From: Heptranchias perlo
Taxonomy: Eukaryota
Length of the DNA stretch: 64,000 nucleotides
Assembly: GCF_035084215.1 (NCBI RefSeq)
Contig: NC_090339.1
Location: forward strand, 31,930,001 to 31,994,000
Direction of reading: 5' to 3'
Within the stretch, counting starts at the first letter, position 1. Every line of letters starts with the position of its first letter. The position numbers and the translations under genes are program-made. Positions 6,758-64,000 of the stretch are shown piece by piece. Below the pieces are notes generated by a model, which was not told the DNA's origin, did no database searches, and worked only from the letters and a program-made list of their open reading frames with translations.

Positions 6758-7400
6758 AATCTTCTTTGATTACTCGGAGTTCCATCACATTCCCATTGAT
6801 TTTTTTTCCTTCCCCACTAACTGCTACATTGCGGAAATGACATTGACACACAACCCCCTTCTCCTCCAACCGCCTCCTCTCGGATTGACATCCAGTCCAG
6901 CCAATTATCCCTCCTGGAAAAGTGTGAGAACCGAACCAATGCAGTGCGAGGATCCACAGGTCCAGGCTAGAGGCGGTCGCTCCGACTCTCTGCCCCTCTT
7001 CCGCGACATTCTCCGCGCCTGGGTGGCCCTGGAGAGGGGACATGCGGGTTTCTGCGACCGGTGGGCACCGCAGGGACTGGAGTGTATCCTTGATCAATAT
7101 AATAAAGTTGTTATTTCAATTTGTTTGTTATTTGATTCTGTTTTAATTTTTTTTTTTAAAAATCACCCTCAAACCCCTTACAAAAGGGGCCTAAACACAA
7201 AAAAAGTCTACTTTTCTTAATTGACCAAAATGAGACTCTGGATTGCCCCAGCGTCATCGTGCAAAATCAAAAAAATAGACAAAAAAGAGAAAAAAATGCA
7301 GTGCAAGGGCGGGACTTGGGGAATTTGGGATTATAGCGCTGGTTCTTAGGGAGTTAGTGGTTTTAACCCATTATTTGTCTTGCTAATCCCAAAGAAATCT
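6758..7400 (-). promoter_or_regulatory. Putative SHROOM4 5' UTR/promoter, interrupted by a Tx1 fragment
   Basis: CCAAT motifs near 6901 and 6936 and a GC box gggcgggac near 7307; locally CpG-richer; position upstream of the ATG. Confidence 0.4.
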
Positions 7401-9070
7401 GCGCTCAATTGGTTTCAGAATCTCATTCATGGGAATTTTGGAGACTCGTGTTTTTGTTGGAGGTTTCCTTCAATTCAAGTGGGGATCTGGGAGTGTGTTG
7501 CACGGAGCGTCCCCACAAACTGGCATTTAATCCATTTCATGGACTCACAGGCCGCCTGTAATTTCTGCTCATGTTTATATGGGTTGTATGAGGTTGCAGC
7601 CCTTGTTTTGTTATTTGAGGGAACTACTCCTCAAGTTATGGCTGCACTTCAGTCCCACGCTCCTGATCTTTGGCCGCCCGGTGAGGAGGGGGCGGGCAGG
7701 TCGGTGGACGTCTTCGTGGGCCTGCTCCTGGGCCTGTCCAAGGTGGCTATCCACAGGTCCAGGTTAGAAGTGGCCCGTGGGGGCGGTCGCTCCGACTGTC
7801 TGCCTCTCTTCCACGGCATTCTCTGTGCCCGGGTGGTCCTGGAAAAGGAGCACGCGGTGTCTGCCAGTACGCTTGAGGCTTTCCGCAACTGGGGGTCACT
7901 GCAGGGACTGGAGTGCATCCTCGATCAGGGGAATGAGATTATTATTTGAACTTGTTTATTTGTTTTTTTCTTTGGGTCTGATTTGTGGGTTTTATATTAT
8001 ATATATAAAAAAATGAAAGTTACCCCTTAACCCCCCCCACTTCTATAAAAGGGGGCCTGAATTAAAAGAGTGGCTAAACTACACATCCTTAACTCCCCCC
8101 CCCACCCCCCCCACTTCTAAAAAAAGGGCCTGAATTAAAAGAGTGGAGAAGGAGCACGAGGTGTCTGCCAATAGACTTGAGGCTTTCCGGTGGGCACTGC
8201 AGGGACTGGAGTGCATAGTCGATGAGCACAATGGGATTTTGGTTTAATTCGGCTGTGATTGGGTGTAGCATAAAAAAAAAACATTTTGGTAGCACTTCAG
8301 TAGGTTTTTGGGGTTCTTGACACTGGGGCAACCTGGTGTCTTTTTTCATGGTTTTACACAAAGATTCCTCCAATTCAAGTGGGGGTCTGGGGAGGAGAAT
8401 GTTGCACAGAGCAGTCCCCACAAACCGGCTTTTAATCCACTTTCCGGACTCCCGGCCGCCTGTAATTTCTGCAGCCTGGATGAGTCCGTGTTTCACATCT
8501 ACATGGAATGCGAGAGGTTGCAGCCCCTGTTCCACTATTTAAAGAGGCTGTTCCTCGAGTTCTGGCTGCATTTCAGTCCCACAGTCCTGATCTTTGGCTG
8601 CCCAGCGAGGCGGGGGCAAGCAAGTCGGAAATGATTCGAAATAGTGTCATGGGATTTTTTACATCCACCTGAGAGGGCAGACGGGGCCTCGGTTTTCCAT
8701 CTCATCCAAAAGACGGCACCTCCACATGGGTCTGCTCTTGGGCCTGACCAAGATTACCATCTACAGGTCCAGGTTAGATGCGGCCCGTGGGAGCGCTCGC
8801 TCCAACTGTCTGCCTCTCTTCTACAGCATTCACCGCGCCCTGATGGCCCCGGTGAAGGAGCACATGGTGTCTGCCAGTACACTTGAAGCTTTTCACGACC
8901 AGTGGGTGCTGCAGTGACAGGAATGCATAGTCGATGAGGACAATGGGATTTTGATTTAATGTGGTTGTGATTGGGTGTGCCAAAAAAAAAAACATTTTGG
9001 TTGCACTTTAGTAGGACTTTGAGGTACTTTTATTTTTCACAGGTTTCAATCAAAGATTCCTCCAATTCAA
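6950..9070 (+). mobile_element. Cluster of four co-oriented Tx1-clade LINE 3' fragments (about 6950-7215, 7470-8075, 8143-8290, 8375-8995)
   Basis: ORF2 C-terminal motifs AACNFCxLDESVFHIYMECERLQPLF, WLHFSPT, GLLLGLxKxxIxRSR, EKEHAVS and QGLECILD recur; the spacer ttcct(c/t)caattcaagt is shared. Confidence 0.8.
8640..8725 (-). mobile_element. SINE fragment (SacSINE1/DeuSINE-like) inserted in a Tx1 copy
   Basis: gggattttttacatccacctgagagggcagacggggcctcgg...catccaaaagacggcacctcc interrupts the Tx1 reading frame. Confidence 0.65.
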
Positions 9071-24249: not shown

Positions 24250-27200
24250 GAATTATGTGTCAGGAGCCCTGTGTTCTATGGAACTTGTGCAGAAGTTCCT
24301 GGAGCTGCCACTTAGTCCAGTATGCTCTGAACAGTAAAGGAGCCCCTCTGATAGTGTTTCAAAAGGATGGCATTGGACTCTGCCATCATCCCTGCCATCT
24401 GCCGCACATCTTCAGAGAGTCTTTGCAATGCCTTTATATGGTTCTGAAGTTCTCCAAGTATTTGTCTTTTTATGAGAGGACTCCTGAGATTATCGTCTGA
24501 ATTCTCAAAAGCCAGGGTGGTACATCTCTTAAGCCTCCACTCTGTTACATCATGCTCCATCTCCAAATCTCCAATCTGTCATCCTCTGGTTTCCTAGTGC
24601 ATTGTGAATCACCCCATGTCAATTATCCATATCACCCTGAGATAACCTATCTAGGCTGTGAGTGCAAGTGATAGGATTCATGACAGAGTGGGCCAATTCC
24701 TGCTGGCAGTGCCAGATGGTGAAAATTCCGGCGTTAGTTCCTTTTCACTCTGAAGCATTTTTCTTGCTTCCGACTTCGGTGGAGATAAGAAGAATGAAAA
24801 ATGAGAAGAGTTTCCTGAAGTCCACTTTTTGTTCCTGTTAGGTTCATGTAAGAGTCTCCTCAGAGTATGAGCCTCAAAACAGAAAAAAACATTTCTGATT
24901 TTTGACCATTAGCACTTAGTTAGCCAAAACCATCTGTGGATGCAGGACCTCCCACATCTCTATCCCATTCAGGATTTGCTTTGACTCCTCCTCCTGCTGT
25001 CCCTCCTCCTGTAACTTGTACCTTCTTGGGAATTGTGCACAATCTTCATTGGTGTTGTGGGAAAAGGGATACATTTCCTTACTTACATGAGGTCATTCGG
25101 CTGCTATATTTATACCAGCCACACAAACATGCACCCTTTTATTTACACTGGGATATCCTATATTGCACCTAATTTGTGATGCACTGGTGGAAGTTTATTC
25201 TTCCCTTTTCTCTCCTTCTTTCCTGCTAGACCATTAGACCATCGGAGGGCTGCAAGGAGTGGACGAAGATATCACTACTTTTCATGGCAGTGTCATTATA
25301 CTAGCATCAGTGCAGCCCCTTTCAAAGCCAACATAGGAGGGAACTTTTGATCTGCTCCCTGTACACATTGGCAAGTGAAATGACACTGGAAACAGATCCT
25401 TGGTTTCATTGAGATGAGTACATTTTTAGTCTTCAAGGGGTCCATCAGTACAGTCCCTGCTAAAACCCTCAACCTGCTGACATGGAGGTAATACTAAGTA
25501 GAAGTAAAAGGTTAGGATCATGCATTAAAAGAATTTTAGACACAAGGGGTAGTCACAGTGATGAGAAGTAGCAGCAGTAGTAGGGCACAATGAAGAAACA
25601 AGACGTTAGTAAACATGTGCATTTCTGGCAATTTGGATGTTGTATATCTTTTTCCAGAGAGGTCTTCTGTTAGCCCTCTTATATGGTGATTATTGTTTGC
25701 AACTGTCCCCTCCCAGGGAGGGTATTAGAGGTATTGCAGTTTAACTGAGTAGAGAGCAACTCAAGGGATCATGAAGGACTTTATTGTGTCATGCAGATAG
25801 AGGAAGAATTTGGTTGATGATCTCCTGCCTGATGTTACGTGTTGTTGGCAGTAGGGTTTCTGAGCCCACCTGTCCCCTCTCCTGGGATTCTTTGGCATGA
25901 GCAGGGGATTGATCTCCAGCACCTTCATCCCTCTCTTCACCTTCTGTGCTTGGAAGGCCCAATATCTTTGTAATGGCCAAATTATAAAGGGTGCAGCAAA
26001 CCACTACATTTCTGGGAATCCTTGCTGGATTATAGTGCAGTGCCCCTTCCGACCTTTTCAGGCCCCAGAAACAGGACTTGAGAATTTAAATGGTCTATTC
26101 CACATTGATAATGGTAGCACCCAAGACCTTGTTGAACATGTTTTCAACCTCTGTCCCTTGGATTCTGAAAAGATGTCATTAGGCAAGTCTGAATTGGATC
26201 TCTTACCAGTCACCCTGTCAAGTTTCTTTGGCTGAGCAGCGCTGGTATCCTGGATTGTCTGAGAATAAACAAGTAATGGCTACTGCATGCATAGCATGCA
26301 CTGAGATGCATAATGAAGTGGCTATGGCTACCGTCACTCACTATCTGGACATCCAGGGAGCGCAAACCCTTCAGGTTCATGAAGTTGATGGGGCTTTCAG
26401 ACAGGGCTTTCTGGCCACATGGGTGACATTAATGCCACCCTGCACTTGTAGGAGTCCAGCCGCTCAGCAGAAGTTGATGGCTGTCTCTCTCTCTCTCTCT
26501 CTCTGCTTTGCTGTGTCCATGTGGAACTGAATGAACTCAGAGACGTACCTGAACAAGGCATCTATAATGTATCCAATGCAGCAATAAACTGCTAACTAAC
26601 TGATGTGACGAATGTCACCAGAGGCTGCATGGAAAGACCTGGATGCACAAAAGTTAAGTGATGTCTCACCTTCACAGCCACTGACAAAGCAGTGTCCCTG
26701 GTGAGAAGAGGCTGCAAGTCAGGTTCGAACAGCTGGCACATTATCGTTACAGTGTCAAGGGGAAAATGCAGCCTACTCAGACAGAGCCTACAGGAAAAAT
26801 GGTCTGTAGATTCTGTGACGTGGATACTTGCGGGTGTTGCCTGCATGCATGATGCTGCACTCTCCTGGCTTCCATTCTTTCATGCTCCATGTCCTGGTCA
26901 TCCTCCTCCTTAAAACACAGGATCAATGGAATTTCACTATGCAGAGCTCCCTTTAAATTCTCAGCAAGTTTCACAAAGTACCTTTAAATGTTCAGAAGCT
27001 GCAGCTTCGAAGTAATGGCAATGACACCCAGCCAAAATAGTGTTGCAGAATCACACTCCTATGTGACCGTTAACCGTCCCAACCTCTTCTCACCTGTGGG
27101 GCACCAAAAATGGCTCAGCATCACCACCTTTACCGTAGTGATTCTCAAGAGGCATTAAATGTGCGGAAACACAGGTTAATCTCAGGGGCACTTGGTTATG

Positions 27201-27382: not shown

Positions 27383-28445
27383 GACATCTGAAATGTTAAC
27401 CTATCTTTTCTCTAAACAACATGAAGTTGTGTTTGTCACATTTTTAAACCAAAATGAGTGGGTCTCACTCCAAATAAGTCAAACTTGATAGACCTGGTAT
27501 TGTCTGATTACCTAATAGGGCATTCATTACAGTCGTCAACATTGGGGAAATGTGAGCAGCAAGATTTATCATAAAAAGTGAGGCACTATTAGACCCATTT
27601 AAACAAATAGAGTTCTGGTTTAATCACTTGTAGCTCACATCTGGCCTTTCATTTATGTGCAAATATATTGGGATAGATTTTGTTGTGAGCGGCGAACGAA
27701 CAGCGCCTGCTGTTCGTTAGACTTGCCCTTGTCCATAGACTTTCCATGAGGTTTTGCACGGCAAGTTACTGTCAGCGGGAGATCCAAACAGTGCGGCGCC
27801 CTCTACAGGGCATCTGGGACCTGTGTGACCAGGACAAGCAACTGTCTATCTCCTTAACCAATCAGATTCAAGAGTCGTTAATGAGCAGTGCCGAGTCTGA
27901 ACCAGGAATTGTGGGCTCGATTTTAGGGTCGGGTTACCTGCGGGTTTCCAGCGGGGGGGCCCCGAAAATCCCGATCTCCGATCACGTGACCGGATTCGGA
28001 CGAAATCCCGGCCACTTCCGGGTACCGCGCTGACGTGCGGGGCTGCGCACGAAAGCCCCGCTGGTGGGAATCCCGCAGGCAATTAAAGCCAGCGGGGTTC
28101 CACTTGAGAGCACTTAACTTGCTCGTTGTGGTCAGTTAATGAGCTGAAGCAGCTGTCAAAAGAGGAAGTGTGGGATTTTAGGTTCAACGCAGTCAGTTTC
28201 CCACACTGGGGGAAACAGTACCCTTCAAACCAGGCGTGTTGCAGCCAGCAGCCTGTGGCAGGTGCCAAGGTGCGCTCCACGGGGGAGAGCCCTCACCCAC
28301 GCAGGAGGCCACCGCGTCACATAGGGCAACCCCTGCCCTCCACCAACCCCCGCCAAGCCAGAGGACAGACCGACACGAAACCGCAGCCCCAGTCCGAGGA
28401 CCCACCCACCTACCCTGCACAACCCCTCACACCAACACCTGCCAG

Positions 28446-29678
28446 ATGGGTGGTGCGTTGACATCGTCGGAGGACGAACAGGATGACCAGCCCCAGCAGC
28501 CTCGCAGTCCACGCCGTCCGCCTCGGAGAGGTGGGGCCCCCCAACACGGTGCTGCGGCACACCCACCTGCACAGCAGGAGGGAGGGCAACCGCAGAGAGA
28601 GATGCGTCGCAGGAGGCACTACCCTCCGCACAGGGTGTACAGAGCGAGGCTCAGCTTCATGGACCTCTCCGAGGAGCAGTGCATACGGAGGCTCAGAGTC
28701 AATCGCCAGGTAGTCGCCGACATCTGCAGCCTCCTTAACGACGAGCTGCTCCCTGATGGACCAAGCAGCATCTTCTTACCTGTCGCCGTCAAAGTCACCA
28801 CTGCCCTCGACTTCTTCGCATCCGGTTCCTTCCAGGGTGCCACCGGGGACATCACCGGGGTCTGTCAGTCCTCTGCACACAAGTGCATAAGGCAGGTCAC
28901 CGATGGGTTGTTCCGCAGGGCCTCCCACTACATCAACTTCGCCATGGACGAGCGCAGCCAGATGGAGAGGGCGGTTGGATTCCATGCCATGGCCGGCTTC
29001 CCACGGGTGCAGGGTGTAATCGACTGCACCCACATCGCAATACGGGCACCTCCGCATGAGCCAGGGCTGTTCATCAACAGGAAGGGGTATCACTCCATGA
29101 ACGCCCAGCTCATCTGTGACCACCGCCAGAGATTCCTACACGTGTGCGCCAGATACCCCGGCAGCTGCCACGATGCCTTCGTCCTCAGGGAGTCCGCCGT
29201 CCCGCCCATCCTGCAGGCACCCAACGCCGGCAACGGCTGGCTCCTCGGCGACAAGGGGTATCCCCTCCACACGTGGCTCATGACACCTCTGAGGAACCCC
29301 ATCACCGAGCCGGAGCGTCGGTACAATGACAGCCACACTGCTACCAGGTCTACAATTGAGCAGACCATAGGGCTTCTCAAGATGCGCTTCAGGTGCCTTG
29401 ATCGTTCTGGGGGAGCGCTCCAATACACACCATTCAGAGTGGGACGAATCATAGTTGTCTGCTGTGCCCTGCACAACATGGCCCAACAGAGAGGGGTGCC
29501 GCTGGAGGAGGCCCCATCCACACCCGCCACCCACATTGAGGAAGGCGAGGGCGAGGAGGAGGAGGAGGAGGAGGAGGAGGACGCGCCAGAGGATGTTGGA
29601 CGCCCCATGCGCCGAGCCGCGACTCACCGGGATGGTCGCCGGGCCAGGGACGCACTCATACGTCAACGGTTCTCCTAG
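28446..29678 (+). CDS. Harbinger DDE transposase (HARBI1-like), 410 aa from the first in-frame ATG
   Basis: Open frame with GVIDCTH, NRKGYHSMN, YPGSCHD, LLGDKGY, RSTIEQTIGLLKMRFRCL and CCALHN; acidic Glu run at the C terminus; AATAAA at about 29945. Confidence 0.95.
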   Translation: MGGALTSSEDEQDDQPQQPRSPRRPPRRGGAPQHGAAAHPPAQQEGGQPQREMRRRRHYPPHRVYRARLSFMDLSEEQCIRRLRVNRQVVADICSLLNDELLPDGPSSIFLPVAVKVTTALDFFASGSFQGATGDITGVCQSSAHKCIRQVTDGLFRRASHYINFAMDERSQMERAVGFHAMAGFPRVQGVIDCTHIAIRAPPHEPGLFINRKGYHSMNAQLICDHRQRFLHVCARYPGSCHDAFVLRESAVPPILQAPNAGNGWLLGDKGYPLHTWLMTPLRNPITEPERRYNDSHTATRSTIEQTIGLLKMRFRCLDRSGGALQYTPFRVGRIIVVCCALHNMAQQRGVPLEEAPSTPATHIEEGEGEEEEEEEEEDAPEDVGRPMRRAATHRDGRRARDALIRQRFS

Positions 29679-29975
29679 AGTCAGACACTGCGAGGCGCTC
29701 GCATCTCCTCACCTGCACATGCGAGCGGCCATACCAGCCCCCTCCACTGAAGAGTGCTGCCAGTAATCCTGCACCCACAGCAGTGTGCCCAATGGGTGGC
29801 AGCAGGTGTTCGCCGTCATGATGGCCTCCACTGAACGCAACTATTGCACAAGCCGCGGAAGAATGGACGAGAGGTGGCAGGAGTGGTGAGAATAGACTAT
29901 TTAATATCTGGAATGTGACATTATATAAGAAACAAAGTACAAAATAATAAACACCCTCGTGTATTCCCTTTGTGA

Positions 29976-30973
29976 TTATAAGGCCTTTGCAATTCTTCTC
30001 CGGGAACCCCTACGTGGTGCTACCCCCGTGGCTCCAGCAGAGGTAGTGGCAGGTTGCTCGTCTTCTTGCCTTGACCGGGTAGATGCTTTTGGCGGACGGC
30101 CCCTGGGTTTCGGTGCCCGTGAGGGCACCTCCACAGACTGCTCCTCCTGCACCGGGGCAGGGGCAGACTCGGCCACCTGGAGAGGAGGCACCATTGCGGG
30201 TACTGGTTGAGAGGTGGGTGACGGGTGGGACGTGGGGACGCCTTGAGAGGCGTCCCCGCTTCCATGTCCCCGGTCACCATCATCCCTCTCTTGGCCTCGG
30301 CCCACATCACCCCTTCCACCCTGCTGGACGGCAGTTTGGATGGCATGTGTGAGGCCTTGCAAGGCCACCCCTAGTGTATCCCTCAGCCTGTTGGTGGCGT
30401 CGGAATGTTGCTCACCCTGAATCCGTACAGACGTTGTCAGGGCCTGCAAGGACTCGAAGTGGAGCTGTGCGTGACGCTCGAGGGAGGCCAGCCTGTCCTC
30501 CACTGCAGACAGTCCCGCACCTACCCGCGACACTGTGTCGCCGGTACCCTCCTGTGCCTGCGCCACCAATGCCCACATGCAGGAGGTGGACTCCTCCATC
30601 GCCTGCGCTATTGTGGACAATGCGCGTGGCACCTCTGCCAGTACCTCAGCAATTAGCTGGTGGCCCTCGACGACTCTCCTTTTCACTGGTGGCCCCCTGG
30701 GTTCAGCATCTGGGTCCGGCTGAGCAGAGCCTGGAGATGAGTGCTCCCTCCGTCGCGGACCCTCCGCGGCTGCCCCTGCCACCAGGGTCTGCTCATGCTC
30801 ACTCGTGCGCAGTGACTCACCAAGTGCTACCCCAACTAGTTGGCGAGGGGGACCCACCGAGGTGCGTGTCTCTGCGCTGGTGGATGGTTGGCTCTGATGT
30901 GACGATGCACCCTCAGAGACCGCCATGTCCTCTGAGGAATCGCCCTCCACGCTCGCTTGACCCAAAGACGGAC
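29976..30973 (-). CDS. Harbinger Myb/SANT-like protein, exon 3 (spliced product 465 aa)
   Basis: ctcttgcag acceptor in compatible phase; open to TAA at 29976; helical central region and basic C terminus (PRGRP, RRGSRRR). Confidence 0.8.
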
Positions 30974-31089
30974 CTGCAAGAGAACAGAGGGCACTTTGAG
31001 GCATGTGGACCAACTTGACAGTGCGCCTGATGGCAGGTGATGAGACGGTAACTCGCGATCATGGGTGTTGAGTGTCAGCTTTCCCTTAC

Positions 31090-31249
31090 CGGCCGTTTCG
31101 GCAGCGACACACTCGCCATCGGCCACCGACAGGCAATGTCGCGTGCGGGCGAGGTCGAGCGCCTCCACCTCTGCGTCGGTGAGCTCCACCACTTGCGGCG
31201 GCCCACCTCCGGTGCGTGCCCTTTCCCTATTGTTCTTGCTTCTCTTCTC
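31090..31249 (-). CDS. Harbinger Myb/SANT-like protein, exon 2
   Basis: ttgccttcacag acceptor; EKRSKNNRERARTGGGPP...LTDAE; gtaagg donor (phase 1). Confidence 0.85.
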
Positions 31250-31575
31250 CTGTGAAGGCAAAACACAGATGTGTGAGTGGGTGCGTCTTGCATCGTGAGA
31301 CGCATCGAGCATCGGTGTGGTTGGGTTGAGCGTGGCGCGGAATGGATGGGGGGAAGCGTGGGCCACGTGGCCATCCCATTGCATGGGGATTGGGGTGTGT
31401 GGTAGTGTTCGGGTGGGGTCAGGGACGGTGGGTACTTGCGTGCACGGCGAGGATGGTGAATGAGTGGCTGTGAGGATTGCTGATGGAGCGCAGTGGTGGC
31501 TGTGCAGGAGGGGGTTGTGATCTGCTTGGCGTGATGGTGGGGACGGGATGTGGGAGGGTGCGTTGGTGTACTCAC

Positions 31576-31815
31576 CTTGCCAGACCTAGTCAGGTCATTG
31601 AAGCGCTTGCGGCACTGCTCCCAAGTCCTTGGGGTGTTGCACCTGCTGCTCACCTCCGCCGCCACCTCGGCCCATGCCTTCCTGGTTGCGGCGGCAGGGA
31701 ACTTGCGCCCATCTTCTGGGAAGAGTGTTTCCCTCCTCCTCCTCACGCCCTCCAGCATCAGCTGCAGTGCCAGATCTGAAAAACGGGGCGCAGCCTTTCC
31801 CCTTTGTTGAGCCAT
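31576..31815 (-). CDS. Harbinger Myb/SANT-like DNA-binding protein, exon 1
   Basis: MAQQRGKAAPRFSD...AWAEVAAEV...RTWEQCRKRFNDLTRSGK, then gtgagt donor (phase 0). Confidence 0.9.
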
Positions 31816-32728
31816 TCTCCCAGACCTCTTGCTTGCAGCAGGAGGGGCTTTGGGAGACTGCCCCTTTAACTGGAGCTCCTACATCGCGTCGAAGGTACTG
31901 CGCATGCGCAGCCGGCCGGCACGCAGCTGGGGAGCGCAGAACCCGGAAGCTGGGCTTAATGGGTCCAATTATCCCGCGGGGGACGCACACGATTAGCCGT
32001 CCGCGTTTTCCACGCTCCCGGAGGACCACCCGCTGGGAACCCGCAGGCCTGCTAAATTCGAGCCCTGTAAGTTAGAATAGTGAATTCAATGTCAAATCAG
32101 GTACAGAAAGTTAAATAAAGAGAGTGAAAAAAAGATTGGATTAAGATTGGATTAAGAGAGAGAAATAAAAGAGACAGAAAGAAATAGTTTTAAAAAATTA
32201 TTTAAATTTCCAAAGAAAATCTCCAGCAACAATTAAAAGCTGAAGGAATGAGACTCCACACTTGTAAAAGTTAGTTTTCAGTGCCAGAGAGGTTGTTTGG
32301 CAATAATTAAGACTTATCATGCCATTAAAAGAGTGCTTAGACTGGTATAGACTAGCCCTAACTTTTCTGGTGAGTTTAGTCCGTATCTAAAGGAACTTCA
32401 CGTCATTCAATACATGTGAATGGGGAGCCAGATGGCGAGATGCCATTTTCACGCAGCTTACGGATTTTCGCGTTTAACTGTGCATCTCCGCTTGTCTGAA
32501 GTTGCTGCGATTTGCACATAAGTAACGGTGAGTGCTGTTAGCCTCACCCTTATTTTGGAAGTAAAGTCTGGCCCATTGTCCTCTGGTGTCTGAACTTGGG
32601 GGGGATTTGCACAATCCAACACACTGCCATCTGGTGCTCCAGTCGGAACTATTGCTTCAAAGCCACTGAGCTGAATTTTCCTCAAGCATTTTATAACAGG
32701 ACACAGTGGAACTCCCCAAAATATGGCT

Positions 32729-34100
32729 GGGGCTAAATTAATGGATACGTTCATCCAACCCTGAGGAGATTTTTCTCATGTATATGTGTGTAACCCCTCT
32801 GCAGAAAGGGCATTAAACTCATGGACGGTATGGTCTTGGGCAGTAACGCAAAACTGGTGATATTGAATCGGGAGCCTGTTTTACACCTTGTCCGAATTTC
32901 TTGCCTTTTCCATTGACTTTGCCCATTTTTCACTACTGCCCAAGACCAATTTCATCCTCTATGAATGTGGTGAGATATTACGTTGGGACATTTTCACAAT
33001 TTGTTTTATTGCTGCACCAATGTCATTTCCCACATCAAACCCTTTTTTATGCCAATTTAGTGAAAATTTGTGCTGAATTATTGCTAATTTTGGGCATGAT
33101 TGTAACTGGGTGGGACGCAACATGCAGGATTGGTCTTTAAACTGATTGACATGACTGGAAGAACTATTTAAAGGGGCGTTCACCTGCAGGTATTTGGACC
33201 ATTAGGATTTGGGTGTTTTTGGCTTTCCCTGGCTCTGAACTTGCTCAAAAACCTTAACTCTTTTAAATCTTCCAGTTCTGATGAAAGGTCTTCGACCTGA
33301 AATGTTATCTCTGTTTCTTTCTCCACAGATGCTGCTGAGCTTCTCCAGCATTTTCCGCTTTTATTTCAGATTTCCAGCATCCGCAGTATTTTGCTTTTGT
33401 TTTTGTGATTGGTGGATTATCAAGGCATTTCAGAACTCGGAGATTGCTTCTTTTTGATTTGTTTGCCTTACTCACCTTGACTAAGCATTTTCAACTTATC
33501 TTGGGCACTATTTTTACTTCTTTTTTCCGGATGGTGGTAGAGGAGCAGCAGCAGCCTCGGCAACCAGGACAAGCAGTGGCTGAGCCTGTTAGAACACTGC
33601 AGATGAGAGGTGGAGGTGGGGTGGCTGCTTGTAGAATGACTTATCCAGCCATCAGGGCCTATAGGCCAAGTCATTTTCCTGGACATGTCAGAGGAGCAGT
33701 GCGTCAGGACGCTGCGCTTCACCAGGCTGTCTGTTGCAGATCGGTGCAGCCTCCTGCTGGACCAGGGATCTTTCAAGTCTGTGCCAGCTTTGTTGGCAGC
33801 TGCCACGATGCTTTCATCCTAAGACACACATCCATCCCCCCACTATTCCACCCCTCCAGGAATGTCAGAGGTGGCTGCTAGGGACAAAGGATACCCCCTC
33901 CACACCTGGATGATGACACCCCTCAGCAACCCCATTATACCTGAGCAGCATAGCTACAATAATAGCCGTGGGACCACCAGGTACATCACTGAACACAGTA
34001 CTGGCATCTTGAAGCGCTTTGAGAAATTCTGATGTAGGATGGGTGGCCGCTTCTTCTGCCTGGGCCAACTCCATCTTGACGCCACAGTTGGAGGTGGGTC
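32729..34100 (+). mobile_element. Decayed, internally deleted Harbinger element with transposase remnants (about 33530-34020)
   Basis: DMSEEQCVR, GSCHDAFILR and WLLGDKGYPLHTWMMTPL segments with frameshifts; TIR-like ggggctaaatt at 32729; right end uncertain. Confidence 0.75.
33270..33403 (+). mobile_element. Penelope-like pseudo-LTR fragment containing a degenerate hammerhead motif
   Basis: ctgatga-a-aggtc-ttc-gacct-gaaa-tgtt at 33278-33306. Confidence 0.6.
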
Positions 34101-39043: not shown

Positions 39044-39380
39044 ATGTGCTGGGTTATGATTTGGAGTCGCCACGTATTCCGTGTCTTGATACTTTTACTG
39101 GAGCTTGTAGCATTGCATGGAGGTGCTGGGGTGAGTGAAGAGCCTGGCGGTAGGGAGGTAAGGGACTTGGGTCCCCTAATCGAGATGTTGGCTGGGAAGG
39201 TCAGCCCCCGCCCTCCGCTGCTCTCTGAACAGAAGGTAGATGATCAACACATGGAATACATGGCCTATCTCTACAAACAGTCGGCAGATCAGGATGGGAA
39301 GCCCAAAACTAACCGGACCATTACGACCAACACCATTCGGCTGGTGAAACCCAGCACGAGTGTCTTGCTCGCCAGCTCAG
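39044..39380 (+). CDS. BMP15: Bone morphogenetic protein 15, exon 1 (signal peptide and start of prodomain)
   Basis: MCWVMIWSRHVFRVLILLLELVALHGGAG signal peptide; MEYMAYLYKQSAD..G.PK..NTIRLVKP prodomain motif; CAG/gtaaat donor, phase 1. Confidence 0.9.
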
Positions 39381-40604
39381 GTAAATCGCCCCCTTTCTCG
39401 AAACTTGGCTTCGAATTCAAAGGAAGCTTTATTTTTTCCTTGCCTTAATCTCACCTTTTTAAATTTCCTTTTGGCGAATTATAATAGCCTAAGTATCATG
39501 GTTACTAGTAAGACTAATATTGTCTTCCGCTTTATATCGGAACTCGTGGTTTTACAGAATCTGAGCGATTTAATTTTGACTTAATCCCACGAACACATTC
39601 TCTTTACAAAAATTATTCAATTTTGCAGCTGATTTTTTTAAGAGATGAATGACCTGTTAAGATTTTTGCTTCCATGCAGTTTTTTAAAAAAAAATTCAAG
39701 TACCCAAACTGAGTTTTGTGTGATAATTACATTTTCGTAAGCAAAAGATTGGCCATTCATACCCAGTTTCCTTTTGCGAGATCGCCTGCATTTGCTCCTT
39801 TTTCTATTGGCACCCTCCCAATAGGATAGTACTCTAATCGCCTTTTTCTTGCTCCTGGCCCAAGCTAAGAACTTGTTCATGTGTTCTACCTCACCTTGGT
39901 ATGTTTAAGCGTACCACTGGTCCTTTTGTAAGGTGGTTAGTGGGAGGGAGTGACTGATTTCGAGCTCTCGGAGGTCACTGCACTACAGACCATCTGAAAT
40001 TGAATTGCAGCTTCATTTTTAATGCAAAATGTATTTTTGAGGATGGCTGTGATGGCTGTGAGCTGACATGGCTTTTATGGAGCTTGCTGTCTGATATCTT
40101 GATCAAGTAGTGGATACTCTAGAGGATTGGGGATGAAGTAGATTTTGAAGCTTCTGGCTTCAATAGTCCATTTAATATCTGGAAGAATGCAGGCATGGTG
40201 GTCATAGTGGCATAAATGTGAAATGCTCAAACAAGTGCTTTGTCCCCTAGGTGTGTTAGACTTTTCTAATTTATACCAATATAAATTACATGCTTGAAAC
40301 AGTATAATTTGGCTTGTATTTTGAATACTAAGTTGAAGTCCATTTCAATAGAGACTGAATAGTTGTGGCTGATTTTATTTTTGTACTTTTTTTAAGAGCT
40401 CAAAAAAATCATAATTTCTGAGCTTCCAGCAAAGAAGCCCATTCTTTGTTTAACCTTGTACTTCTGATTTTAGCTAGACAGGGGCAACATTGCTGGCTCT
40501 TTAAAGTTTCTACTAGAAAGAGAAATTGGAGGGAGAAAAGGAAGAGTAGGGACATTAAATTTATGAATGAATGGTAAAATGCTAATATCTTTTTTTTAAT
40601 GCAG

Positions 40605-41479
40605 GTCCTTGGCATGCCCATCATGTTCAATACAATCTGCACTATCTTCCAGAGCTGGAACATTTGATTAAAGTTGTTGTTGTGTATTTGCACAGCCCTC
40701 TTCCCAATCACTTCCAGGTTTCTTGTGAGATCAAATGTCTCCTTGCAAATTATGTTAACCTAAACTCTATTCAGAATGCCACTGCCATAGAATTGCCAAT
40801 CAGGTTTGTGCTAAAGCTGAATGACCAATGGGCAGAAGCTGACATAACTCCATGTGTCTTCCTCCCAACTGGTAATTCTGTGAAGAAAGTAGATCTACAC
40901 ATCAGTTACAAGTGTGCTGAGCTAGTAAAGGCCAGTCAAAGAACTCTGGACAAAAAAAGGAACTCTGCTGTTCATCTGCAAGTGCCCTCACTGCTGCTGT
41001 ACTTAAATGATACTGATGAGACTGCACATCAAAGAAGGGAGAAACGGGAAAAGCAAATTCCAGAGAGGCCATCCAAATCCCGTGTACTGTCTAGGAAGCC
41101 CCGGCAATTAAGTAACATTGGCTCAGACATTCCGAACTATCTCCATAAGAAAAGTCCTCCAAGGAACAAATGCAAACTCCATTCATTCTGGGTAAGCTTT
41201 GAGCAGCTGGGATGGGATCACTGGATTGTGGCTCCTCACAAGTACAATCCAAAATTTTGCAGGGGAGACTGTCCTAGAATTCTCAACTATGGGTACCACT
41301 CTCCAAACCATGCAATAGTGCAGAATTTTATCAATGAAATTGTTGATAAAAATGTCCCCCGTCCATCTTGTGTCCCCTTGAAATACAGCCCAATTAGTGT
41401 TCTTATGAAGGAGCAGAATGATCACATTGTATACAAGGAGTACAAGGACATGATTGCAGTGTCTTGTACATGCAAATAG
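40605..41479 (+). CDS. BMP15: Bone morphogenetic protein 15, exon 2 (prodomain, RKPR furin site, TGF-beta mature domain)
   Basis: ttttttaatgcag acceptor in phase; PSLLLYLNDT; CKLHSFWVSFEQLGWDHWIVAPHKYNPKFCRGDC...SPNHAIVQ...RPSCVP...CTCK, with Ser replacing the dimerisation Cys; SHROOM4 synteny. Confidence 0.95.
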
Positions 41480-45690: not shown

Positions 45691-45787
45691 GTATATATGT
45701 CTTTCTGTGGAGATGCCGGTGATGGACTGGGGTTGACAATTGTAAACAATTTTACAACACCAAGTTATAGTCCAGCAATTTTATTTT

Positions 45788-45832
45788 AAATTCACAAGCT
45801 TTCGGAGGCTACCTCCTTCCTCAGGTAAATTT
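45788..45832 (-). ncRNA. Minimal type I hammerhead ribozyme motif (antisense twin)
   Basis: Reverse strand reads aaatttac-CTGAGGA-a-ggagg-tag-cctcc-GAAA-gc-tt-gtgaattt. Confidence 0.72.
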
Positions 45833-45871
45833 ACCTGACGAAGGAGGAAGCCTCCGAAAGCTTGTGAATTT
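45827..45871 (+). ncRNA. Minimal type I hammerhead ribozyme motif
   Basis: Stem I aaatttac/gtgaattt; core CTGACGA plus an extra A; stem II ggagg-aag-cctcc; GAAA; palindromic AGCT in place of stem III; CUU cleavage triplet. Confidence 0.75.
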
Positions 45872-45989
45872 AAAATAAAATTGCTGGACTATAACTTGGT
45901 GTTGTAAAATTGTTTACAATTGTATGTCTTTCACATAACTTATCAAACGTGCCATTATGCCTAAACAAAAAGTAACTGCTGAACTGCAT

Positions 45990-46344: not shown

Positions 46345-47865
46345 CATTCTACCATAAATTCCAGCTCCAGTTTGGCAAGTCCGAAGTCATCATCTTCGGT
46401 CCCTGCCACAAACCCGGTTCCTTCACAGATTGCATACCCTTCCCTGATGCAGCCTCAGGCTGAGTCAGACTATTCCCATACTTCCCTGTAACAGCCTCAG
46501 GCTGAGTCAGACTATTCCCATCCTTCCCTGATGCAGCCTCAGGCTGAGTCAGACTATTCCCATACTTCCCTGTAACAGCCTCAGGCTGAGTCAGACTATT
46601 CCCATACTTCCCTGATGCAGCCTCAGGCTGAGTCAGACTATTCCCATACTTCCCTGTAACAGCCTCAGGCTGAGTCAGACTATTCCCATACTTCCCTGAT
46701 GCAGCCTCAGGCTGAGTCAGACTATTCCCATACTTCCCTGTAACAGCCTCAGGCTGAGTCAGACTATTCCCATCCTTCCCTGATGCAGCCTCAGGCTGAG
46801 TCAGACTATTCCCATCCTTCCCTGATGCAGCCTCAGGCTGAGTCAGACTATTCCCATACTTTCCTGATGCAGCCTCAGGCTGAGTCAGACTATTCCCATA
46901 CATTCCTGATGCATCCTCAGGCTGAGTCAGACTATTCCCATACTTCCCTGTAACAGCCTCAGGCTGAGTCAGACTATTCCCATCCTTCCCTGATGCAGCC
47001 TCAGGCTGAGTCAGACTATTCCCATACTTCCCTGTTACAGCCTCAAACTGAGTCAGACTATTCCCATACTTCCCTGTAACAGCCTCAGGCTGAGTCAGAC
47101 TATTCCCATACTTTCCTGATGCAGCCTCAGGCTGAGTCAGACTATTCCCATACTTCCCTGATGCAGCCTCAGGCTGAGTCAGACTATTCCCATCCTTCCC
47201 TGATGCAGCCTCAGGCTGAGTCAGACTATTCCCATACTTCCCTGTAACAGCCTCAGGCTGAGTCAGACTATTCCCATCCTTCCCTGATGCAGCCTCAGGC
47301 TGAGTCAGACTATTCCCATCCTTCCCTGATGCAGCCTCAGGCTGAGTCAGACTATTCCCATACTTTCCTGATGCAGCCTCAGGCTGAGTCAGACTATTCC
47401 CATACATTCCTGATGCATCCTCAGGCTGAGTCAGACTATTCCCATACTTCCCTGTAACAGCCTCAGGCTGAGTCAGACTATTCCCATCCTTCCCTGATGC
47501 AGCCTCAGGCTGAGTCAGACTATTCCCATACTTCCCTGTTACAGCCTCAAACTGAGTCAGACTATTCCCATACTTCCCTGTAACAGCCTCAGGCTGAGTC
47601 AGACTATTCCCATACTTTCCTGATGCAGCCTCAGGCTGAGTCAGACTATTCCCATACTTCCCTGATGCAGCCTCAGGCTGAGTCAGACTATTCCCATACT
47701 TCCCTGTAACAGCCTCAGGCTGAGCCAGACTATTCCCATACTTTCCTGATGCAGCCTCAGGCTGAGCCAGACTATTCGCATCCTCACTACTTTGTTCTAC
47801 TCTGAATGGAGTTTCAGACCCCGTATTCTCCCCGTCACTAAGATTGCCTATTCCATCTCTGCAAC
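46345..47865 (+). mobile_element. L2 LINE fragment hosting the minisatellite
   Basis: Flanks aagtccgaagtcatcatcttcggtccctgccacaaac and gagtttcagaccccgtattctccccgtcactaagattgcctattcc align with consecutive parts of the L2 at 4436-4640. Confidence 0.75.
46433..47777. repeat. 42-bp minisatellite, 32 units
   Basis: Unit cttccctgatgcagcctcaggctgagtcagactattcccata; units counted from the 14-aa periodicity of the antisense ORF. Confidence 0.97.
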
Positions 47866-48348: not shown

Positions 48349-49507
48349 ATGGAGAAGTATGAGAAAATCATGACAATAGGAAGGGGTGCAAGTGCAGAGG
48401 TCCACTTGATGAATAATTTAGAAACAAAAAAGCTGTATGCTGTCAAAAGAATAAAGATTGATTCCTCACTCAAGACTAGAACCAAAGAAGCTGTTATGCA
48501 GGAAGCGACCATTTTGACCAGACTCAAGCACCCTCACATTGTCACTTGTCATGAGTACTTCATTGACCTAGAGGAAGAGTATGTCTTCATAGTGCAAGAT
48601 TATTGTGATGGTGGCACTTTGGATGACTTAATCCAGTCTAAAAAAGAGAAGGGGTATTTTGCTGAGAAGGATATTATGCAGTGGTTTGTTCAGTTAGTTA
48701 TGGCCATTCAGTATATTCACTCCCTGAAAATTCTTCATCGAGATATTAAAACATCCAATGTCTTTCTTACAAAGAAAGGTACAGTTAAACTTGGTGATTT
48801 TGGAATTTCTAAAGTAATGACCCACACTTTGGATATGGCAAGTACCTGTGTTGGCACACCATGCTATTTGAGCCCAGAACTCTGTCAAGATATTCCATAC
48901 AGCTCCAAGTCTGATATCTGGGCACTTGGTTGCCTTTTATTTGAACTTTGTGCTTTGAAACCTGCCTTTCATGCAAGGAACCTAATTAGCTTGTTTTATA
49001 AAATTGTAAAAGGAGAGTATGCCTGTGTACCCAAGAGCTATTCTAAAAACCAGCATAATTTGATCAAAAACATTCTCAACCAGTGCCCTGAAGAAAGGCC
49101 TAGTGCCAGCATTATCCTCAAAATACCTTATGTCCAAGAACATCTCAAGCTCTTCATCAGGGATCAGGAATCTCAGCTTACAAAATATCATTCTCTGAAG
49201 CATCTACACTCTGCCAAGTCGGAGAGTGATGAGCTCACTGGTGACCTACACAAATCTCTGCATCTTTGTGAAGGGGGCATGTGTACTAGGAACATCAAAC
49301 CAGACTCAGCACCACATTGCCTTAGTGATGAAAATGTAGAGGAGGCAGTCTCGGAGGTGTGCGAAAATATGGAGCCCAGTGACGAAGAAGATAAATGTAA
49401 TTACTCTGACGACTTTGATCAGGATAGTTTGTCCTCTGTAGAAGAGGATACAGAGGATGAAATATCAGTACCACCTCCAAGTGTTGAAACCCCTGAAGAG
49501 ACAGAAG
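48349..49507 (+). CDS. nek12: NIMA-related serine/threonine kinase, coding exon 1 (entire kinase domain plus acidic linker); nek12 assignment tentative
   Basis: [62 protein letters not shown] are NEK1/3/4/5-type motifs; GAAG/gtagtt donor, phase 1. Symbol recalled from the fish-annotated gene, not verified. Confidence 0.85.
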
Positions 49508-51991
49508 GTAGTTTGACATTTAGAATCTTTTGATACTTGTTTAATCCCCAATGTAACTGAATACTTCCAGTGTTGTCACCAGGTGTTTTTAGTATATTGT
49601 TACCAGTATGCCAAAGCAAATATTGCACCTAAGCTAATACTTTTTAATATTAATCCAATATATTTCTTAGTAATGCTCTTAATTCATCACCTCAAATCAT
49701 TCTCACCACAGCCATCATCAGTGAGAAACCAGTAAATCACCAGTACTTCATAGTGTTATAAAAACAAATCACATTTATGTAGTACTTGCTACGTTAGACA
49801 TAACTAAGTACTATTTCTGGCACCACCCAAGTTTGGAAGAAAATCTAAAAACACTGTTGTGTTTTCATATTATGTCCACTTAAACTGAACATTTCACACC
49901 CTATGCTTTACTGCAAGCCTGGTGACAATGCTATTGAAGTCTTCCGTATTGCAATAGCTAATGTCTTGTTAAAAATCCAGATTCTACACTTTTGTCATTT
50001 TATTTTCTCTCTCTTGATGTTCTGGCCAATATTCATCCATTAACCAATAGCATCAAAAAAACCCATATGAATTGTTGGTTAATCTCATTGCTATTTGTGG
50101 GATCTTGTTAAGCACAAGATGGCTGCTGCTTTTATCCACATGATAGTAAATGGACAATTCTATGTGAAGATCTTTGGGACACTTATGAGAAATGTGATAA
50201 GATGCTACATAGATACAAGTTGTTTCTATGAAGTTGTCATACTTGCCCCCAAATGATAGAAATGCTGTCTATAGCTGATGCCTAAGAGGGGGTGAATGCC
50301 CTTTCACTCCCAGTGGGTAGTGCTTGGCCTCTGGATGGAACAGTTGAGGTCAGGCATTGCAGGCACAATCCCACATCCAACCACTCCATGTGCAATGTAT
50401 TTTAGTCCAATGTACTCTGCCACCATATTGCCTCACCTGAAATTTCCATTTTAAATTTCATTGCTATTCATGGTTCCACTTCTTGCTGTCATGTGTTGAA
50501 CAGACAATAGTAATGGTTTGCTTGAGATTCACCAATGATTACATCAGTGGAACAGTTGGGAGCAGGAGTAACTAAAGAAAAAGGGCAATACAATCTGAAG
50601 GAATATACTTGAGGATTGTTTGTCAAAGTGTTAAGATTAGTGATTTACTTCATGAATTTATCTAAAAGGGAAGTTTCATTTGTGATTTGCATCTTAGCCA
50701 AACTATAACTAAGCTCTGCAATCCTTGCAAACAGGGTAAGCATGTACTTTTTATTCAAACATTTCAAAAGGGATTAAAAGATAAATTTCTTCTGATTTGC
50801 TGCTGTTCATTTTCTTATTCCAGCAAGCCCCATTCCTTGCTTCCTCTTATTTACATTTGTCTTCTTTAGTTCAAATTACTGTAGGAGGCAGGGTTGATGG
50901 TATGGCATTATACAATGATTGACAGGTGTCCCATATCAGCAATACATATAAAAAATATTAAAATACTTTGCACCTGGAAGGGAAAAAGCACTCTAAAATG
51001 CATGGATAAGAATTGCTATTTATTAGAGATTCTGCCCACTTGTTTCCAGGAAACCCTGCATTATCTGAGCTTAACAAGCAGTGGGAAACTTACCAGTGCT
51101 CTGGGCTGGTAAGCTGCATGGTTTAGACTGTTAAACTACAACAGTAATCCTATGCATACTTGGATTTGTAAGCCTTGGCAGTTGGCAATCCGTGTCTAAA
51201 TTCTTTGGGCTTGGGTATGTGGAGTTTGTCCCTATGGAGAAAAATGTGTACTCCATATTAGGCAAACAAACTACTTACATGGGTTTTTTAGATTAGTTTG
51301 TTGAACATAGTGCATGTCAGACCCCCGCTCCCCCAAGAAAAGTTTAAAGAAATACAGTAATTAATGTAAAAGAGAGGAAAGCTAAACAGAATGAATCGTC
51401 ATAGCTACTATCTATTTATTTTCCTCACATGCTAAATTACCTATTCTACTGTTGGTACCTTCTGGGCAAAAATTCCTTCACTTATGGATGCACTTTATTG
51501 CATGTATAGACACTGATGCACAGGAACACTGGCCGAGAGGACATTATCGTACAATTCATCTGGTGTTCAGCTAAGTGGAAATTAGGATTGAAGCAGCTTT
51601 TCCCCACCTTCCCCTCAGCTGTTACCTTCACAAAGTTACCATGCAGTCCTTGGCTAGGAGCAACTGGAGTCCATATATGGGTGCCAAAATAATTTGGTCA
51701 GCTGGTTCTTATCGTTAAGCAGCTGCAAACTGTACAACCCACTTCTGTGCCAGGTGCAATACAAAGCCATTTCTGTATGTGTGCACAGAGGTACTTGAGG
51801 TAGGTGTGCCATGCTTAAGTTTCCTTTTAAAAATATACCATTTAGCAAACCTGGAGCCATCTACCGCTAAGATGGCTCCATCTATCGCCATATAATAGAA
51901 GGTGTGAGTTGGATATCCTGAGAGTGTATGAATGAGTTTTGACCAAGTATAGATACCGGTTATAAACTTTGTTTATATTTATGATTGGTAG

Positions 51992-57753: not shown

Positions 57754-58469
57754 GGCCCAGAATTTGCTGGCAAAATAATGGCGAATTAAAGGCGCTTGCC
57801 TTTAGTGTGCAAAAAATCTAGCAATTTGTGGTGAGGAAGAGATACAGCATGAGTTGCGAATTATAAACAAATTGCTGGACTATTTGCATCGCTCCACTGT
57901 TAACCTCACAAAAAATAAAGCTCGCCGTTAACCTCCCCATGAGTGTCAAGAAATTTCTGCATTTGGCTGTATAAACAAATTAAACTCATCGCAGAAAGTT
58001 AGGGCTGCTATTTAATGGCGTAAGGACCCTGTTTCCAAAAATGGCCTTCCATTTTGAAACCAGTTAGTGATTAAATTATAATTTTTCTGCACATGCCACA
58101 TAAAGAAAGCAACAAACTAATTTGTTTAACTGGTTAAACCGATTTGTTAAATTGATTTGTTCCATAGCAAAAAAACTTTGAACAACACATTTTCCTGCAC
58201 GTAATTCGGTGATAAACTTTGTTTAAATAATGCTCAAGCTGCCACTTCAGAGCTTTGCTAACCATTCAATTCCTTAAATCCCATTGTTTAAGGAGATAGA
58301 CTATTGATCCAGTCATTCACCAAGGCCCCAAATGCCCTGTTGACCTTGCCATGTGGTTATCGGCTCGCACATCCAGCAATATGTTGTGCAAAAGTAATTG
58401 GAGCTGAAGGGTGAGGTAAAAACAACCAGCGCACGCCGCAAGAAGTCCCGCTCCAGCAAATTCTGGGCC
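57754..58469. mobile_element. Harbinger-type MITE (716 bp)
   Basis: Perfect 17-bp TIR ggcccagaatttgctgg / ccagcaaattctgggcc with an ATA duplication (57751-57753, 58470-58472). Confidence 0.88.
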
Positions 58470-61425: not shown

Positions 61426-61437
61426 GCTGTTAACCTG

Positions 61438-63483: not shown

Positions 63484-63827
63484 CTGTTGTTGGGAGAGTA
63501 CCGAGGCAAGTTGTTTCTTGCCCTCTGGCAACGTCCCTTTCCCTCCTACGATCATGACTCCAGCACTGCCTTATTATTTGCCTATGCTTAAGCCAGACCT
63601 CAATGTCTATGTCATGAACCTCAGTATTCTGTATCTATTCCAACAGCACAAAGTAGCATTAGTAGTTTTACATACTACTTCCTGCCCCTGCAACTTTCTG
63701 TCAGTCATTGTTGATGTCTAGAACTATGCTTTAAAAGTCCAAAAAAAGAATTAACCATCACATTCTAACCCTGGGCTATCGGTGCATGAATTAGGCTATC
63801 GGAAATTTGTGGCTTGAAAAAAAGAAA

Positions 63828-64000
63828 GACTTCCATTCATATAGCGCCTTTCACAACCTCAGGACGTCCCAAAGCGCTTTACAGCCAATTAAATACTTTT
63901 GAATTGCGGTCACTGTTGTAATGTAAGAAACGTGGCAGCCAACTTGCGCACAGCAAGGTCCCACAAACAGTAATGTGAAAATGACAGGTAATCTGTTTTT
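63828..64000 (-). mobile_element. SINE 3' part (SacSINE1/DeuSINE-like, L2-type tail), continuing beyond the window
   Basis: atatagcgcctttcacaacctcaggacgtcccaaagcgctttac...gcacagcaaggtcccacaaacag. Confidence 0.8.

Follow-up and report, generated by a model that had tools for sequence, protein, structure and literature searches.

What is known of the mechanism of vertebrate Harbinger transposition rests on one reconstructed zebrafish element, Harbinger3_DR. It is reported to require both of its proteins: the Myb-like protein binds the terminal inverted repeats (TIRs) as well as the transposase and serves nuclear import (PMC2836001, PMC9392472). Harbinger-Snek is described with 269 fully intact copies in Laticauda colubrina and with RNA over both open reading frames (ORFs) of one intact copy in L. 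laticaudata (PMC8437027). For NuwaI, a 2015 study lists eleven families in which both ORFs are intact (PMC4482050), and a new Harbinger insertion was caught in Caenorhabditis inopinata (PMC13668399). A 2022 survey reported no Harbinger in the elephant shark, suggested a loss in cartilaginous fish and called for other species (PMC9179366). The locus described here is a two-gene Harbinger element of the shark Heptranchias perlo, located at 27913-32065 of a 64,000-nt stretch of contig NC_090339.1 (positions 31,930,001 to 31,994,000). This whole stretch is called the window, and all coordinates refer to it.

The best explanation (probability about 0.85) is a full-length Harbinger of autonomous type, from the vertebrate group with GGG ends and a preference for CWG (Harbinger3_DR-like / NuwaI), in a young sub-lineage of a large family that has expanded in H. 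perlo, a sevengill-type shark. Most probably, the window copy is left over from the last burst and has aged slightly, rather than being an established active jumper. Titles and abstract openings of the shark and elasmobranch Harbinger literature contained no description of the family, a search outside of which lay Repbase, Dfam and subscription journals. The novelty lies in the host; natural intact vertebrate Harbingers are already published.

Structure of the element, its genes and its insertion site

The element measures 4,153 bp, is complete and shows no damage. Its GC content is 61%, compared with 43% in the remaining window. Both ends carry TIRs of the GGGCTCGA type: the left end at 27913 reads GGGCTCGATTTTAG and the right end at 32065, on the reverse strand, reads GGGCTCGAATTTAG, with 13 of 14 nt alike. 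Beyond these terminal nucleotides, an imperfect block (27937-27961 against 32023-32047) is 88% complementary across 25 nt, and the imperfect left TIR occupies 27913-27961 on the forward strand, the right TIR 32023-32065 on the reverse strand. The 13-nt terminal motif, with at most two mismatches, occurs seven times in the window (2.0 expected; seven reached in 0 of 100 shuffles), and five of the seven occurrences are ends of the intact element or of the 2-kb relative presented below.

A TGT is present on both flanks (27910-27912 and 32066-32068), inside an older high-copy host repeat. The left part of this repeat extends over 27800-27909 and its right part over 32069-32430, the outer limits being approximate. 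The element was compared with 4 of the 12 sequencing runs listed: X3 (organism A), X5, X9 (organism B) and X10 (organism C). The DNA run X3 has 95 contigs whose loose end falls before 32066 and whose consensus there ends GAACCAGGAAG; in several contigs the left flank (27868-27908) is joined to 32066-32080, skipping the element. Other copies of the host repeat hence contain one TGT and no element (GGAAG-TGT-AAG), and this settles both the boundaries and the duplication of 3 bp. The TGT duplication is therefore real, as established by paralogous empty sites; these joints are paralogues of the host repeat and not an empty allele at the locus of the element. No exact empty allele occurs among the 15 of 130 joints listed, all from one sample of organism A. 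A shifted boundary with a GTG or CTG duplication was also considered and is ruled out by the reading of the empty paralogues. The copy number of the host repeat is reflected in the X3 bins 32025-32426, with a summed depth of 169,000-235,000 against 10-24 in the unique flank bins, and a further partial copy (75%) lies at 58273-58343.

The transposase gene is intronless and located on the forward strand, from the ATG at 28446 to the stop at 29678. It codes for 410 amino acids with a DDE_Tnp_4 domain (PF13359, E 5e-37), and the catalytic residues D193, D243, D269 and E305 are all present. Each of them is the commonest residue of its column among the homologues (93 of 119, 80 of 113, 105 of 120 and 80 of 117, respectively). 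E305 is replaced by K or R in 27 of the 117, and catalytic residues are lost in many homologues. The AlphaFold2 model is confident (pLDDT, the predicted local distance difference test, 84.3; pTM, the predicted template modelling score, 0.83) and puts the first D of the modelled active site at a strand end, the second after a strand and the E inside a helix. No relative was identified by a sequence search of the Protein Data Bank (PDB), which returned one chance row (E 0.13). In a Foldseek comparison with the PDB nothing appeared at E<=0.001, the weak top rows being DDE transposases and integrases.

Most homologues come from sharks and rays and carry the label 'putative nuclease HARBI1'; the best are 62-79% identical. 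A quick tree without bootstrap was built from 104 of 121 rows, leaving out 17 short ones, among them the nearest protein, P0004. In it, seven H. perlo proteins form a group with the transposase (Shimodaira-Hasegawa-like approximate likelihood ratio test, SH-aLRT, 91), inside an 81-row chondrichthyan clade (97). A HARBI1 motif gave no match in the tree rows; none of them is a recognisable true HARBI1, and HARBI1 orthology is not addressed by this tree.

The same tree contains short-branched, strongly supported clades that unite shark and ray orders (P0015/P0016/P0033/P0049, P0003/P0005 and P0010/P0024/P0025/P0026). P0003 and P0005 lack the catalytic E. Judging from the sequences, these cross-order clades may represent elasmobranch-specific domesticated Harbinger transposases or further transfers. 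The chondrichthyan clade also includes, on a long branch, a 'putative nuclease HARBI1' of Callorhinchus milii (P0107, 42% identity), the elephant shark, even though no Harbinger had been reported from this species.

The second gene is convergent with the transposase, on the reverse strand, and is composed of three exons. Exon 1 (31815-31576, 240 nt) codes for the trihelix DNA-binding domain (Myb_DNA-bind_5, PF13873, E 9e-10), followed by exon 2 (31249-31090, 160 nt) and exon 3 (30973-29976, 998 nt), the latter with a conserved central block amid low-complexity regions. The introns, 326 and 116 nt long, are both GT-AG, and the spliced frame of 465 amino acids has a terminal stop only. A 297-bp spacer (29679-29975) separates the stop codons of the two genes and contains, by motif only, candidate poly(A) signals for both strands (AATAAA at 29946, forward; ATTAAA at 29900-29905, reverse). 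The exon model is independently supported, because the H. perlo RefSeq protein XP_067827223.1 (P0123) has an equal length of 465 amino acids, is colinear over the three exons and aligns across both splice junctions. Its identity to the window copy is 72/80, 47/53 and 288/332 residues in exons 1 to 3, and exon 2 shares 51 of 53 residues with P0130. All eight proteins matching exon 3 are H. perlo RefSeq proteins, in an identity range of 87-98%. For the central block, the best score in the ESM Atlas (0.78) is uninformative. A complex prediction with residues 52-352 of the transposase, run without alignments, scored 0.00 and speaks neither for nor against binding.

One of the H. perlo matches, P0128, is annotated as a 'CDK2-like isoform', and its C-terminus is derived from Myb exon 3 of this Harbinger family. 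Its sequence makes an exonisation possible, or else an annotation fusion.

A preliminary description of the window, made from the letters alone, had already named TIRs at 27913..32065, a TGT duplication, an uninterrupted 410-residue DDE transposase and a 465-residue three-exon Myb/SANT gene with canonical splice sites. All four are borne out: the ends by their terminal nucleotides and the 25-nt block, the duplication by the single TGT of the empty paralogues, the transposase by its domain and catalytic residues, and the partner gene by its GT-AG introns and the colinear P0123.

Family size, target preference and age

The family is large in organism A. In X3, 33,512 contigs match the element: 5,025 at 99% identity or more, 9,744 at 95-99% and 18,743 at 90-95%. 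The summed depth inside the element is 40,000-620,000, which is not a copy number, against the same 10-24 in the unique flank bins; a difference this wide, three to four orders of magnitude, means that the family is large. The nearest Myb cluster has four members on at least five contigs, several of which are chromosome-scale. They differ from the window copy at 3 of 321 amino acids (P0121, XP_067842251.1, and also P0130), 5 of 321 (P0129) and 12 of 316 (P0131). Older relatives are more distant (P0123, 38 of 321; P0122, 40 of 321). In amino acids 145-465, the Myb protein of the window copy has 21 derived residues in common with the sister cluster and no private one, which bounds the private divergence of this part at about 0.44% (95%).

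Compared with the element, a non-autonomous relative of 2,046 bp (61438-63483, reverse strand) is 73% identical to the first 964 bp and 65% to the last ~680 bp, both genes being internally deleted. It has both TIRs, with 0-1 mismatch to the intact element in the terminal 13 nt, and is flanked by a CTG duplication (61435-61437 and 63484-63486). An inverted copy of this unit lies on the forward strand (59432-61425); its start coincides exactly with a left TIR, and the final 51 bp of its right end are missing. Together they form a 4.05-kb palindrome (59432-63483) with a 63-nt centre, and its outer bounds are exactly left TIRs, suggesting a transposase-linked origin. It could have arisen via a local hop or a sister-chromatid event, with a small central deletion afterwards. 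The arms are ~99% identical: over 1,994 nt they differ by 23 substitutions plus a single gap column; eight differences are CpG transitions, ~7 fall in one indel cluster, and derived alleles are found on both arms. Given these arm differences, an assembly fold-back was judged unlikely. From its sequence, the relative is a candidate for local cargo and appears to be a deletion derivative of an older sister family.

For Harbinger3_DR, insertion is reported to produce a 3-bp duplication inside the extended target consensus AAACACCWGGTCTTT (PMC3016246). The CTG site of the 2-kb relative agrees with this consensus at 8-9 of 15 positions, in the top 1-5% of window 15-mers. A left-end junction in X10, scored by eye, agrees at 7 of 9 positions, a level found in 0.3% of window 9-mers. 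Four junctions of the family were observed, namely TGT/TGT for the window copy, CTG/CTG for the sister unit, ATG on one side of the inverted copy and CTT on one side in X10.

Under neutral decay, and with an assumed indel rate, the probability that both ORFs stay open would be 0.63-0.31 at 0.2-0.5% divergence and 0.009 at 2%. The epaulette shark has a reported pedigree rate of 7e-10 per site per generation (confidence interval 1.4-14.1e-10; PMC10587355). At this rate, a private divergence of 0.1-0.5% would correspond to about 1.4-7 million generations. A recent insertion in a lineage with such a low mutation rate need not mean a current one. In X5, which is a guessed RNA run, the deepest contig reads through intron 1, and no predicted splice is seen among the 15 of 130 joints listed; neither observation speaks for or against expression.

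The further claims of the preliminary description need adjustment. High CpG had been taken as a sign of recency: the observed/expected ratio of the element is indeed 0.67, against 0.29 for the remaining window, but the non-coding relative at 59.4-63.5 kb reaches 0.57-0.58 as well (2-kb bins 60001-64000). CpG retention is thus not diagnostic of an active element, since a dead non-coding relative also shows it. The insertion called recent belongs to a multi-copy family and is young in terms of sequence, less so in generations. As a candidate active element, the copy stands in that it is structurally complete with two genes; the implied rarity was overstated, considering the 269 intact Harbinger-Snek copies (PMC8437027). 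Finally, the supposed mobiliser of local MITEs (miniature transposable elements bounded by inverted repeats) has a non-autonomous 2-kb relative with matching termini as possible cargo, but the window yielded no short MITE with such ends.

Activity and spread of the family

The window copy was inserted into an older repeat with duplication of TGT, and it has kept both frames, both ends and the catalytic residues. By analogy with Harbinger3_DR and Ping/Pong, the spliced 465-residue trihelix protein would bind the element termini, and it would also bind the transposase and bring it into the nucleus. The DDE transposase would then excise the element and insert it with a 3-nt stagger, giving a 3-bp duplication. 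It is conceivable, at somewhat less than even chances, that the native proteins mobilise their cognate element in a cell assay; that the family is still transposing in the wild is unlikely.

Several observations weigh against an intact member of a young sub-lineage. Three residues in the N-terminal helical region of the transposase are unusual for otherwise conserved columns: M72 (L in 62 of 79 homologues), D122 (N in 73 of 110) and C140 (S in 93 of 114), and the nearest homologue, P0004, has L, N and S at these positions. An X10 contig at 28583-28924 has exactly three differences and an X5 contig at 28672-28816 exactly one; these counts, given without the positions of the differences, are compatible with M72, D122 and C140 being specific to the window copy. 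No transposase homologue in the protein collection searched is more than 79% identical. Against the window copy, the five X5 contigs of greatest depth show 30 differences in 1,693 bp (1.8%), together with an indel of 8 bp at a distance of 88 bp from the right end of the element. Of 40 listed variant sites in X3, about 10 are close to fixation against the window copy (less than 3% residual depth), and CpG decay accounts for three of these. The TGT site itself fits the Harbinger3_DR consensus at 4-5 of 15 positions, the background level; the family probably targets like Harbinger3_DR, to judge from the other junctions, with the insertion of the window copy as an off-consensus event. A dead fossil, intact by chance among very many copies and already disabled by missense or cis changes, would account for the 1.8% and for the three residues in the helical region, and with ~10% of copies keeping both frames at 1% neutral decay, many survivors are expected in a large family. 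This alternative is a serious contender at a little under even odds. However, most of the 1.8% is common to the sub-lineage, in line with the 21 shared and zero private Myb residues; the purely coding X5 pieces diverge less (6 of 643 bp) than those with non-coding DNA (24 of 1,050 bp), and column 122 tolerates H, S, T and A among homologues. In our reading, most differences mark the young sub-lineage, and only a few tenths of a percent would be private. The opposite extreme is a family transposing now, in which the window copy works as a source and mobilises, in trans, the 2-kb non-autonomous family as well. This agrees with the open ORFs, the catalytic residues and the two TIRs, and likewise with the lack of private Myb residues in amino acids 145-465, the 5,025 contigs at 99% identity or more, and a non-autonomous unit with equal terminal 13 nt (0-1 mismatch) and arms ~1% apart. 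It is nevertheless an improbable reading: the near-fixed private changes, the unusual transposase residues and the off-consensus target all count against it, even a divergence of 0.2% is old at the very low mutation rate of sharks (PMC10587355), and cross-mobilisation is unproven for a non-autonomous family only 65-73% identical internally.

Horizontal transfer of the young sub-lineage, with one to a few near-identical full-length copies in organisms B and C, is doubtful. X9 has 18 matching contigs (depth 5-14) and X10 has 22 (depth 2-7), covering coding, intron and 5' parts. The eight pieces listed for each run differ from the window at 63 of 2,635 bp (X9) and 53 of 1,969 bp (X10); several differences are the majority alleles of organism A, and pieces with zero differences include 143 bp of intron 1. 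Both runs are devoid of the unique flanks and of the host repeat, which has a very high depth in A. In A the left end also exceeds the Myb region 5-10 times in depth, a contrast that gives way to nearly flat profiles in X9 and X10, and in X10 the left element end is joined to a different flank. Moreover, horizontal transfer of Harbinger among marine animals is a published precedent (PMC8437027). Low-level carry-over of A-like DNA would, however, likewise assemble as low-depth consensus pieces, given a young repeat of high copy number; the three runs all date to 2024, and neither end of the element occurs in X9. B and C, for their part, could be related sharks of slow evolution, and a fragment of the older sister family is found in both (loose ends at 30024-30056). 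In the tree, the transposase falls among the older families of H. perlo itself, so a transfer into A is not indicated. The label 'putative nuclease HARBI1' and the repeated domestication of both Harbinger genes in vertebrates (PMC9392472) bring to mind a domesticated HARBI1/NAIF1/MSANTD-like pair of host genes instead of a mobile element. This has next to no chance of being correct: TIRs, a 3-bp duplication and an insertion inside a repeat are present, copy number is very high, and near-identical sisters lie on several chromosome-scale contigs. The empty paralogous sites and the copy number refute a domesticated pair.

The preferred reading remains a lightly aged, structurally complete copy from the last burst. 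A far more ambitious combination, namely a natural transposition-competent shark Harbinger that recently spread horizontally, in near-identical full-length copies, to at least two other species and whose activity drives TIR-bounded inverted duplications like the 4-kb palindrome, is a long shot. If true, it would offer a two-component vertebrate transposon that is ready for use without reconstruction and has an extended target preference, as well as a major source of mutation in a lineage with point-mutation rates among the lowest known.

Neighbouring sequences and comparison with known systems

Older, broken Harbinger transposase relics flank the element at 25909-26832 (reverse strand) and 33618-34014 (forward strand), with 33-63% amino acid identity in pieces. 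Together with the intact element and the 2-kb relative, they represent no fewer than three age classes of the superfamily within 40 kb. About 7 kb to the right of the element starts a two-exon gene of the TGF-beta family (39044-41479, forward strand; PF00019, E 8e-31). Its motifs look BMP15-like, which would make it an oocyte-expressed neighbour. A single uninterrupted ORF at 48349-49533 (forward strand) codes for a Ser/Thr protein kinase of ~394 amino acids (PF00069, E 4e-63) and is either an intronless gene or a retrocopy. We take it to be NEK-like; its exact sequence is absent from the protein collection searched. Directly upstream of the kinase and divergent from it lies a tandem array of 32 x 42 bp (46439-47781, 92% matches), which on the minus strand reads as a 14-residue repeat inside a stop-free frame of 581 codons. 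A near-perfect hairpin of 188 bp (45736-45923; 94-nt arms, 98%, no spacer) is probably another fold-back element, and several tandem segments at 6972-9029 (72-89% similar, some with terminal A-runs) are probably 3' ends of a retrotransposon.

In the broad sense of two-ORF PIF/Harbinger (PHIS), the element has all components: a catalytic DDE_Tnp_4 transposase, a Myb/SANT gene, TIRs and a 3-bp duplication. It departs from PIF/Harbinger in the narrow sense, which duplicates TWA (Han et al. 2015), by its TGT and the CTG of the sister unit. The closest described group is NuwaI (Han et al. 2015, PMC4482050), with which it has in common the DDE transposase and Myb/SANT ORFs and GGG-starting TIRs within 12-61 bp. 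The reported mean length of ~4.46 kb is near the 4,153 bp found here, and the placement of D1, D2 and E in the modelled transposase appears alike. NuwaI is described as duplicating CWG, which the sister unit did and the window copy, with TGT, did not; four junctions are too few to settle membership. This comparison was made by described features. The NuwaI host list in the main text comprises 16 genomes and no cartilaginous fish (PMC4482050).

The zebrafish pair Harbinger3_DR / Harbinger3N_DR has the same two-protein design, and two junctions of the shark family fit its CWG-centred 15-bp consensus. Likened here by described features, Harbinger3_DR was reconstructed from a consensus, whereas the window contains a natural copy. 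A natural intact pair with natural cargo is a convenient substrate for assays and structure, because there is no PDB match by sequence or clearly by fold. Another abundant Harbinger, LatiHarb1, makes up 9.3% of the genome of the coelacanth, a marine vertebrate of slow evolution, and its expression from a genomic insert has been reported; it belongs to a different lineage and is likened here by description (PMC3787270, PMC9179366). Closer at hand, the shark and ray proteins named 'putative nuclease HARBI1', and XP_067827223.1 and XP_067842251.1 of H. perlo, are from the same or sister families but are annotated as host genes. The element and its many shark and ray homologues reveal a superfamily that is abundant and recently expanded in elasmobranchs. 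The value of this copy is real yet modest, since sea kraits have natural intact copies as well and NuwaI families with both ORFs intact have been listed. Harbinger-Snek of the sea kraits, likened by description, has a suspected marine history of horizontal transfer and a dated burst, and like the family described here it is natural, high-copy and two-ORF, with intact copies next to deletion derivatives (PMC8437027).

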